IMG/VR virus record: IMGVR_UViG_3300014608_000001
Coordinates: 1 to 7,053 of that record
Strand: one strand, 5' to 3'
DNA from: a virus
DNA: 7,053 nt
The notes under the pieces were generated by a model. That model was not told the origin of the DNA. It made no database searches and worked only from the letters and a program-made list of their open reading frames with translations. The position numbers were made by a program, and so were the translations under genes. Below, one piece after another: positions 1,255 to 1,495 of the stretch. Every line of letters begins with the position of its first letter. Position 1 is the stretch's first letter.

Positions 1255-1484
1255 TGGCAGCCGGGGCAGCATGGATGCTGATGATAGGTCTAAGCGCAGC
1301 AGACCCATCGCCAGAGGCGACCATCCACACAGACAGATCGTTGTGCGAAATGGCTGCCAGGGTGATCAACACCCAGGCAGAGAAAGCGGCAGCAGAGCTT
1401 CGTGCGAGCTGCCGAGAAATCGAGTTCATCGAATGGGCAGAATTCGAGCAAAAGTCTCACCATGAGACAAGAGTCCACCATTAG
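1254..1484 (+). CDS. Uncertain 76-aa ORF start-coupled to the repressor (TAATG overlap); overlaps the replication origin
   Basis: The ATG at 1254 overlaps the repressor TAA. First codon positions are G/purine-rich, which is coding-like. GC3 is only about 59%, close to the local base composition. The 3' third overlaps the origin core, and the stop codon sits in the loop of the origin hairpin. No motif recognised. Confidence 0.3.
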   Translation: MAAGAAWMLMIGLSAADPSPEATIHTDRSLCEMAARVINTQAEKAAAELRASCREIEFIEWAEFEQKSHHETRVHH

Positions 1485-1495
1485 AGATGGTGGAC
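1454..1495 (-). other. Plus-strand replication origin core, Ff type: nicking hairpin (1473-1495) plus an adjacent 6-3-6 inverted repeat (1454-1468)
   Basis: The minus strand reads GTCCACCAT-CTCTA-ATGGTGGAC-TCTT-GTCTCA-TGG-TGAGAC. The f1 origin as I recall it reads GTCCAC-GTTCTTTAATA-GTGGAC-TCTT-GTTCCA-AAC-TGGAAC. The 12-mer GTGGACTCTTGT is identical, preceded by TAAT(G/A). The hairpin has a perfect 9-bp stem. By analogy, the nick falls in CTCT^AATGG, between 1483 and 1482 on the minus strand. Confidence 0.75.

Follow-up and report, generated by a model that had tools for sequence, protein, structure and literature searches.

A predicted plus-strand replication origin in an inovirus genome and a candidate initiator helix that co-varies with its second inverted repeat

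Introduction

Where does replication of the inovirus in IMG/VR record IMGVR_UViG_3300014608_000001 begin, and what would allow its initiator protein to recognise that site? The analysis covered positions 1 to 7,053 of the record, a stretch of 7,053 nucleotides (nt) referred to below as the window. An element at positions 1495-1454 of its minus strand had been described in an earlier note, made from the letters alone, as a near-identical copy of the f1/M13 plus-strand origin core with a diverged initiator-binding repeat. An origin is expected in a phage with a gene II-type initiator and is unsurprising in itself; the question raised by this locus is rather which part of the DNA and which part of the protein determine its specificity. 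Our account is built on homology, conservation, and the covariation of base pairs and of protein with DNA, and from these we infer the position of the nick, the mode of binding, the dimer, and the roles of host factors and of protein X.

Results

The element corresponds to the origin core of f1 and IKe

The minus strand from 1495 to 1454 reads GTCCACCAT-CTCTA-ATGGTGGAC-TCTT-GTCTCA-TGG-TGAGAC, in agreement with the letters given in the earlier note, and the f1 origin that the note had quoted proved accurate, being 100% identical over a 71-nt stretch to the f1/M13 records (5759-5829). The 12-mer GTGGACTCTTGT, which had been pointed out as common to f1 and the window, is indeed present in both and occurs a single time in the window, on the minus strand at 1478-1467. 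Counting the two strands of 7053 bases, an exact 12-mer is expected about 8e-4 times, in line with the previous estimate of less than 1e-3, and matches to GTGGACTCTTGT with at most one mismatch averaged 0.02 in shuffled sequences. Alignment to the real records reproduced the proposed geometry, in which a hairpin (hairpin 1) is followed by 4 nt and an inverted repeat of 6 nt, 3 nt, and 6 nt, as in both f1 and IKe, and also the proposed difference in the repeat arms, GTCTCA in the window against GTTCCA in f1. A chance resemblance to f1 was rejected on three grounds: the 12-mer is present only once, the shuffle controls speak against it, and the geometry is common to both.

The term near-identical overstates the likeness, as the element matches f1 at 31 of 42 positions in an ungapped comparison. 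In the nick-proximal block, CTCT^AATGGTGGACTCTTGT at 1486-1467 of the minus strand is homologous to f1 CTTT^AATAGTGGACTCTTGT with identity at 16 of 17 core positions. The nick that had been predicted between T1483 and A1482 falls at the position homologous to the nick of f1. In M13 this nick lies between 5780T and 5781A (PMC5405960), and in the fd record viral-strand synthesis is annotated as originating at the A immediately 3' of CTTT. The annotated viral-strand origin stem-loops of the IKe record read GAGTCCACTATgtttaATAGTGGACTCTTGTTGCAtttTGCAAC, and hairpin 1 of the window, with its 9-base-pair (bp) stem and 5-nt loop, is nearer to the hairpin of IKe than to that of f1.

Folded as single-stranded DNA, the region forms three adjacent hairpins with a free energy of -19.4 kcal/mol (z = -4.8 against shuffles). 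The most 5' of these, a GC-rich stem-loop directly upstream of hairpin 1, is specific to the clade and absent from f1, and it shows compensating changes among relatives (CCGGC/GCCGG, CCTGC/GCAGG, and CCTGGNCGC/GCGGNCAGG). In hairpin 1, 85% of the cells are paired over 55 origins, and the inner pair alternates between C-G and T-A. Among 82 distinct 200-mers of the clade, positions from about -32 to +33 relative to the nick are highly conserved, and conservation drops to background level 3' of the TTTT run that closes the element. Besides the close relative described below, the sole named phage with a match in GenBank, Pseudomonas phage NEU2023, aligns to exactly 1451-1508 (93%). No Rfam family was matched anywhere in the window. 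The origin lies on the minus strand, which bears all the phage genes. Taken together, these data make it very probable that the plus-strand origin core of this circular inovirus occupies 1515-1450 of the minus strand and is composed of a cleavage module and a specificity repeat.

The initiator belongs to the gene II family

The suggestion that the origin fits a gene II-type Rep was borne out, as a gene II-family initiator gene, rep, with a retained catalytic tyrosine is encoded on the same strand as the origin. The sequence of positions 1-99 recurs at 6955-7053 with 100% identity over all 99 nt, and the window thus represents a circular assembly of 6954 nt. The rep gene runs from GTG 764 across the junction to 6456 and encodes 420 amino acids; because it spans the junction, lists of open reading frames (ORFs) of the linear window miss the full gene. 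GTG 764 is the most likely start, because relatives start at the aligned M-LDKIHLFVPF, beside which the f1 pII start reads MIDMLVLRLPF, and because AGGGA lies 7 nt upstream. A start at ATG 815, which would give 437 amino acids, was dropped, since relatives begin at the aligned M-LDKIH and a ribosome-binding site was found only at the GTG.

Aligned over its full length with fd pII, the initiator shows 38% identity (E = 7e-87). Its Y196 aligns with Y197 of f1, the residue that becomes linked to the nicked DNA (PMC5405960). Residues Y196, K198, E201, R250, and E252 are invariant in an alignment of 46 sequences and make up the YxKxxE and LxRxE motifs, which are held in common with Rep_trans initiators (PMC5714925; PMC4797284). 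The C-terminal 198 residues matched PF05155 with 58.1 bits (cut-off 25) and PF05144 with 27.3 bits (cut-off 21.7), and both domains are present in the precomputed annotation of proteins 98-99% identical to the initiator. It is a member of the Ff/TLCphi (gene II/Cri) group. An AlphaFold2 model of the initiator reached a mean predicted local distance difference test score (pLDDT) of 83.8. With the full-length model, the best structures found by Foldseek in the PDB were those of staphylococcal RepDE (4cwe, 4cwc), with a probability of 0.98 but an E-value of only about 1e-3 and template modelling (TM) scores of 0.22-0.33. Sequence searches gave no meaningful match of the initiator to a solved structure, and no relative with a solved structure could be detected in this way.

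The nick-site block accompanies widely diverged initiators

Exact matches to TAAT[AG]GTGGACTCTTGT were found in 117 viral contigs, mostly of about 7 kb. In every viral contig with a detected gene II homologue, the core lies on the same strand as rep, and the accompanying initiators range from 100% down to 23-28% identity. The columns of the longer block, T-x-TAAT-x-GTGGACTCTTGT, are invariant in 55 distinct origins; because 16 of the 17 core bases were set by the search pattern, this invariance is partly built in, and the informative point is the divergence of the initiators. The recognition sequence of M13 pII, from 5777 to 5791-5809, encompasses the equivalent of the block (PMC5405960), and a separable nicking module would be consistent with the finding that M13 pII needs only the first loop to nick supercoiled DNA (PMC11765958). 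Looking for the core sequence in the literature brought up nothing beyond f1-ori vector sequences and applications of pII as a nickase.

The same pattern gave 114 matches in bacterial genome contigs (L122-L235). About half of these are exact f1 origins on small contigs assigned to Streptomyces, Bacillus, Nocardia, cyanobacteria, and others, and such matches in unrelated assemblies are almost certainly cloning-vector contamination. The other matches include prophage-type origins in Pseudomonas, Stutzerimonas, Acinetobacter, Aeromonas, Zobellella, and other genera, and some are isolated and have no origin context.

Several loci with the core depart from the common arrangement. Eight prophages (L025, L035, L090, L093, L094, L114, L116, and L191) have TAATAGTGGACTCTTGT and the second repeat with no GTCCAC left arm, which makes hairpin 1 impossible, and a near-consensus dif site (ACTGCGCATAATGTATATTATGTTAAAT, 25-26 of 28 positions) is present in four of the eight. 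The idea that origins of this kind are junctions between prophage and host was dropped for the largest group, whose members share a conserved upstream stretch of 110 nt, and this group is a distinct origin variant. In Pseudomonas sp. ANT_H12B, two origins from one strain (L176 and L150) are identical from ATCTC|TAATGG on and wholly different from about 7 nt 5' of the nick, which may reflect a prophage-host junction or a rearrangement of the origin. One viral contig of 6069 nt (L045, IMGVR_UViG_3300027710_000673) has a pair of origin cores in the same orientation, separated by 343 nt if it is circular, with flanks about 68% identical and different second repeats, GTCTCATTATGAGAC and GTGTCATTTTGACAA. 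In a metagenome-assembled genome, Shewanellaceae UBA2521 (L193, DDNL01000075.1), an array resembling clustered regularly interspaced short palindromic repeats (CRISPR) with the repeat GTTTCAATCCACGCACCTATGTAAGGTGCGAC lies at about 780-930. One of its spacers, TTCTTTAATAGTGGACTCTTGTCCCAAAAATGG, matches an inovirus origin core, covering the nick site, the conserved 12-mer, and an arm of the GTCCCA type, and looks like a host spacer against the DNA that these phages conserve most.

The arms of the second inverted repeat vary in concert

The arms of the second inverted repeat, GTCTCA-TGG-TGAGAC in the window, vary at positions 3-5 over the 55 origins with their complementarity kept: 92.7% of the cells are paired, and both sides change in three of the six pairs. 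Covariation between the arms amounted to 0.238, compared with 0.083 in shuffles, none of 500 of which reached as high a value, and it fell to only 0.02-0.06 when the partners were slid by 1-3 columns. The closest relative shows one compensated change, with GTCTAA/TTAGAC in place of GTCTCA/TGAGAC.

A helix of the initiator tracks the arm sequence

Residues 361-372 of the initiator are helical in both models, after a short helix (352-357) and a turn. Within this helix, residues 362, 366, 369, and 370 have the i, i+4, i+7, i+8 spacing of a single helix face. Three repeat types were compared among initiators at least 87% identical to that of the window, with columns 366, 369, and 370 read in "SRATFYRHVDQI". 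The arm GTCTCA was accompanied by R366, D369, and Q370 in 18 of 18 cases, GTCTAA by N366, R369, and D370 in 15 of 16, and GTGCAA by D366, G369, and K370 in 6 of 7. Over a wider range, Arg366 goes with C at arm position 5 (GTCTCA, GTCCCA, GTGACA, GTGTCA, GTATCA, GTTCCA of f1, and GTTGCA of IKe), Asn366 with the arms GTCTAA and GTGTAA, and Asp366 with arms ending in GA in initiators 31-59% identical to the window's. The same pairings of residue and arm were seen in an independent set, the prophages among the genome-contig matches.

When about 400 alignment columns were scanned without bias, with 40 thinned initiator-repeat pairs, the same helix emerged. For arm position 5, R366 ranked first (z = 12.5) and D369 next (z = 4.7); for arm position 4, A362 ranked first (z = 8.7); and with arm positions 3-5 taken as a triplet, R366, A362, and S360 were the top three. 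The initiators of loci L007 and L120 differ at 7 of 420 residues, and the differences include A362R, R366D, D369G, and Q370K; the repeat is GTCTCA in L007 and GTGCAA in L120. Near-identical initiators with different repeats had been considered as counter-evidence to a sequence-specific reading of the repeat, and that argument was reversed when the differing residues were found to cluster on one helix.

These results agree with the view of the earlier note that the cleavage site was retained and that origin specificity diverged by way of the repeat, as an invariant block stands beside varying arms and the arms co-vary with one initiator helix. We lean towards the view that the origin specificity of gene II-family initiators resides in about four residues of a C-terminal helix that would read arm positions 3-5, that natural switches of specificity proceed by changes in these residues and in the arms, and that protein X would act as an origin-binding competitor. 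Searches of the available literature found neither a solved structure nor an account of such a mapping between helix and repeat for gene II proteins.

A number of observations weigh against this view or against parts of the origin assignment. There is no clean one-to-one code, as GTGCAA has A at position 5 and yet goes with Asp366; L066 combines Leu366 with a GTGCAA repeat, and L039 a window-type helix with a GTCTAA repeat. Kinship inflates the covariation statistics, and recombination blocks may move helix and repeat together. Several origins have unequal arms, for example GTCTCA...TGGGAC. The hairpin at the nick is not universal, because some dif-flanked prophages carry the core without the left arm of hairpin 1. 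A pattern scan found that the repeat (1468-1454) together with TTTT fits a simple terminator. The WATCAANNNNTTR consensus of IHF was absent from the whole window, and there is no AT-rich stretch 3' of the core, GC content being 50-58% over 1340-1459, a stretch that codes for protein in the other orientation. When 1400-1453 and the relatives were inspected, with no formal search, no third arm-like repeat was seen. For the helix itself, a 165-residue C-terminal model gave no Foldseek match in the PDB with an E-value below 1, and the helix-turn-helix (HTH) and winged-helix profiles PriA-like_WH, HTH_20, HTH_36, and F-93_WHD all scored below threshold over residues of about 335-385. A named helix-turn-helix fold for the C-terminal part is not claimed, the Foldseek results being noise only. 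Because the fold and profile matches are insignificant, we call helix 361-372 recognition-helix-like and not a member of an HTH family; the binding domain of the pT181 family has likewise been called "not a true HTH" (PMC4797284).

A shorter product of rep would carry the helix and lack the nuclease

Protein X of the Ff phages has a long-known inhibitory role, and its start in f1 is Met300 of pII. The aligned Met307 of the window initiator shows conservation of at least 90%, and GAAGG precedes its ATG (6800-6798) by 7 nt. A start at ATG 6953, the first ATG of the listed ORF, was dropped in favour of this conserved Met307. The predicted product of 114 amino acids includes helix 361-372 and excludes the nuclease. 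Because the helix is contained and the nuclease absent, such a protein X analogue should be able to occupy the repeat, and it may compete with the full-length initiator for it.

Other explanations of the second repeat

The repeat might instead be purely structural, as a hairpin or cruciform that aids extrusion or the termination of replication, or it might be an intrinsic terminator of the minus-strand operon. Compensating changes by themselves would suit a structural role, the L039 pairing of a window-type helix with a different repeat is easier to accommodate in this way, and both the repeat with TTTT and the inner part of hairpin 1 fit the terminator pattern; moreover, the IKe record labels its origin stem-loops as potential terminators. 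The stem has just six pairs, three of them G-C, followed by four T, which makes a weak terminator, and three sites of this kind were found in the region where 1.2 were expected. The repeats of f1 and IKe have no T run. A structural role gives no cause for the arm bases to track one helix face in lineages 31-100% identical, and it leaves unexplained why four of the seven differences between L007 and L120 fall on one helix. We consider an exclusively structural or terminator function improbable; the repeat may have a dual role.

A second alternative is that the repeat is the operator of the adjoining XRE-type repressor, lying by accident beside a relic of a nick site. A symmetric dyad with 3 nt between its halves is typically seen in operators that dimers bind, and the repressor operon ends within the element. 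Against this, the fetched origin regions of f1 and IKe contain an equally spaced repeat of the same kind and lack a repressor cassette; L007 and L120 share closely similar DNA 3' of the origin and have different repeats, and the repeat tracks the initiator instead; and an operator would be expected in the divergent promoter region at 764-898, not at the 3' end of the operon. We regard this explanation as very improbable.

The least credible proposal, to which we give hardly any weight, is that the element is a recombination or attachment site (for XerCD at dif, or for integration mediated by the initiator) and not a vegetative origin: chromosomes of Stutzerimonas and Pseudomonas harbour close relatives even though no integrase is encoded in the genome, the two copies in one strain (L176 and L150) diverge 5' of the nick, and the similarity of relatives collapses directly 3' of the element, but the best dif-like match in the window reaches only 17 of 28 positions, is not convincing, and lies elsewhere than the element, dif-flanked relatives have a separate good dif at their ends, the homologous f1 sequence is an experimentally defined origin, and recombination at a rolling-circle origin would be compatible with its identity as an origin.

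Genome, host, and neighbouring genes

On the minus strand, rep is followed by a G5P-like gene, two small ORFs (the second coat-protein-like according to PHROG), a gene for 506 amino acids in the gene III position, a DUF2523 gene, a Zot-type gene, and two further small ORFs. No secretin gene (gene IV) was identified among the ORFs, and the origin follows the Zot module and the small ORFs. The closest GenBank record is phage blackswan219-1, with 83% identity over 75% of the window. Stutzerimonas is the likely host genus, because initiators 95-98% identical to that of the window are annotated in several Stutzerimonas species. The coordinates of all features are collected in Table 1.

The observation that a repressor cassette on the opposite strand separates the origin from rep was confirmed, and the cassette consists of an XRE-type repressor gene and a small gene. 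Because the second of these runs into the origin, the origin is not purely intergenic. The spacer between origin and rep varies from about 330 to 710 nt among close relatives. The small gene has 36-97% protein conservation over relatives, its substitutions relative to locus L118 are biased towards third positions, and it has neither a Pfam nor a PHROG match. Its product has a hydrophobic N-terminal stretch and two conserved cysteines, and the gene follows that of the repressor. It ends in the loop of hairpin 1, and in origins of the GTCTAA type it stops inside the repeat. Since its last codons are encoded by the origin, the repeat type alters the C-terminal tail of the product, which reads KSHHETRVHH with GTCTCA and KSNR with GTCTAA.

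Between the divergent repressor gene (plus strand, ATG 898) and rep (minus strand, GTG 764), the minus strand of the region 764-898 shows TTGCAT followed after an 18-nt gap by TATGAT, a pair that the promoter scan did not flag; the region is likely a switch region. On the other side of the origin, a GC-rich stretch of about 330 nt (1496-1830, minus strand) extends from the last small ORF to the origin, and 1440-1830 folds into a structure of greater stability than its shuffles do (z = -3.2). This stretch may hold a minus-strand origin or a packaging signal, neither of which could be assigned. In the record of blackswan219-1 (L001, MZ474489.1), hypothetical coding sequences on the plus strand (6915-7133 and 7259-7569) lie over the origin and over the antisense of the homologues of the repressor and small genes, and these annotations are probably wrong.

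Table 1 Features of the window, with coordinates counted from its first letter
Feature	Coordinates	Strand	Evidence or remark
rep (gene II family), N-terminal part; GTG start 764-762, Tyr196 at 179-177	1..764	-	crosses the circle junction
XRE-type helix-turn-helix repressor, divergent from rep	898..1254	+	PF01381, E = 8e-16; PHROG regulator/repressor families
Small conserved gene, 76 amino acids, 3' end overlapping the origin	1254..1484	+	protein-level conservation
Conserved origin island, equivalent of the f1 core ("domain A")	1450..1515	-	per-position conservation, 82 distinct clade 200-mers
TTTT run after the second repeat	1450..1453	-	3' edge of the island; with the repeat, a weak terminator-like site
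Second inverted repeat, GTCTCA-TGG-TGAGAC; proposed initiator-binding/specificity site	1454..1468	-	covariation; centre about 21-22 nt 3' of the nick
Block T-x-TAAT-x-GTGGACTCTTGT, nicking recognition sequence	1467..1485	-	invariant columns, 55 distinct origins
Hairpin 1, GTCCACCAT / loop CTCTA / ATGGTGGAC, bearing the nick site	1473..1495	-	fold and f1/IKe homology
Predicted cleavage site CTCT^AATGG, T1483/A1482	1482..1483	-	alignment to the fd annotation and the M13 nick
Upstream GC-rich stem-loop CCGGC-GCA-GCCGG	1496..1508	-	in the predicted minimum-energy fold; abuts hairpin 1
rep, C-terminal part including the stop	6456..6954	-	PF05155 and PF05144; also 6456-7053 via the 99-nt overlap
Predicted in-frame protein X analogue, Met307-Ala420, 114 amino acids	6456..6800	-	M307 aligned with f1 M300
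Helix 361-372 (RATFYRHVDQIC), proposed recognition helix for the repeat arms	6603..6638	-	both models and covariation

Discussion

Our findings suggest a mechanism in which the two modules of the origin serve different functions. In module 1, made up of hairpin 1 and T-x-T^AAT-x-GTGGACTCTTGT, the initiator would use its N-terminal, Rep_trans-like domain to cut the DNA between T1483 and A1482, and Tyr196 would become linked to the 5' end. A host polymerase would extend the 3' OH round the circle, after which the regenerated site would be cut again and the displaced strand sealed to a single-stranded circle. Module 2, the repeat GTCTCA-TGG-TGAGAC about 21-22 nt 3' of the predicted nick, would serve for docking and specificity. 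Helix 361-372 would read each of its arms, chiefly by way of residues 362, 366, 369, and 370, and two initiator subunits would probably sit on the two arms. The protein X analogue, with the helix and without the nuclease, would occupy the repeat and restrain initiation.

For the genome itself, the origin supplies an annotation of the predicted nick site, the strand polarity, and the minimal replicon of what is likely a Stutzerimonas inovirus. The nick-proximal block is a practical marker for this class of inoviruses, as it accompanies initiators that have diverged to about 25% identity. The joint change of helix and repeat, which extends to natural pairs with hardly any other difference, points to the part of the gene II protein that may read the origin, a link that is undescribed for gene II proteins as far as we could find. 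If true, it would offer a concrete mechanism for the inhibitory role of protein X, and the pairing of helix and repeat could guide the design of orthogonal origin-initiator pairs for the production of single-stranded DNA. The origin as such was expected, and it is the natural specificity switch that would be the useful part.

The closest known arrangement is "domain A" of the Ff phages (f1/M13/fd), which has a nick palindrome, 4 nt, and a 6/3/6 repeat in the same order and at the same spacing, together with a homologous initiator (38%) that is encoded on the same strand, shares the catalytic tyrosine, and has an in-frame internal Met at the protein X position. The window differs from Ff in its arms (GTCTCA against GTTCCA of f1), in a stem of 9 bp with a loop of 5 nt compared with 6 bp and 11 nt in f1 (palindrome GTCCAC...GTGGAC), and in the extra GC hairpin directly upstream. 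A third, direct (delta) repeat 3' of the inverted repeat of f1 has reportedly been described in papers from the Horiuchi laboratory; in the window, inspection showed no recognisable third repeat, and the AT-rich/IHF enhancer "domain B" was not found. In Ff, domain B enhances replication and is not strictly required (PMC5405960). The genomic setting also differs, as the origin of the window does not lie between gene IV and gene II, and an antisense repressor cassette intervenes whose second gene overlaps the origin.

IKe (X02139, stem-loops 6554-6580 and 6582-6599) has the closest form of hairpin, with a stem of at least 9 bp, a 5-nt loop ending in A, and a nick predicted at the 3' end of the loop, as well as an identical GTGGACTCTTGT and a 6/3/6 repeat that runs from GT to AC. 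It differs in its arms (GTTGCA/TGCAAC), in having no T run after the repeat, in its enterobacterial host, and in its initiator, which is about 37% identical.

Pf4/Pf5, CTXphi, and VGJphi are likewise filamentous phages that replicate by rolling circle from a nicked plus-strand origin, and the host genus of the Pf phages is related. Their initiators are Rep_trans proteins (PF02486) with a SIYNK catalytic module and a dependence on UvrD and HU, and these PF02486 phages have been proposed to recognise their origins otherwise than the Ff/TLCphi group (PMC4863604), to which, in contrast, the initiator of the window belongs.

Judged by analogy, the nearest mechanistic parallel is the pT181 plasmid family (RepC/RepD). 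No internal product of the protein X type is known in that family, which also differs in its Gram-positive plasmid hosts, in its Pfam assignment (PF02486 against PF05144 and PF05155), and in C-terminal parts without detectable sequence similarity. In common with the window, the double-strand origin of pT181 plasmids pairs a tyrosine initiator, there with a TBP-like fold, with a conserved nick stem-loop, ICRII, beside a plasmid-specific palindrome, ICRIII. The latter, centred 23 bp from the nick as against about 21-22 nt in the window, is recognised by a small helical C-terminal domain whose specificity depends on six residues (PMC4797284). This parallel suggests that gene II-type phages share the logic of their origins with the pT181 plasmids.

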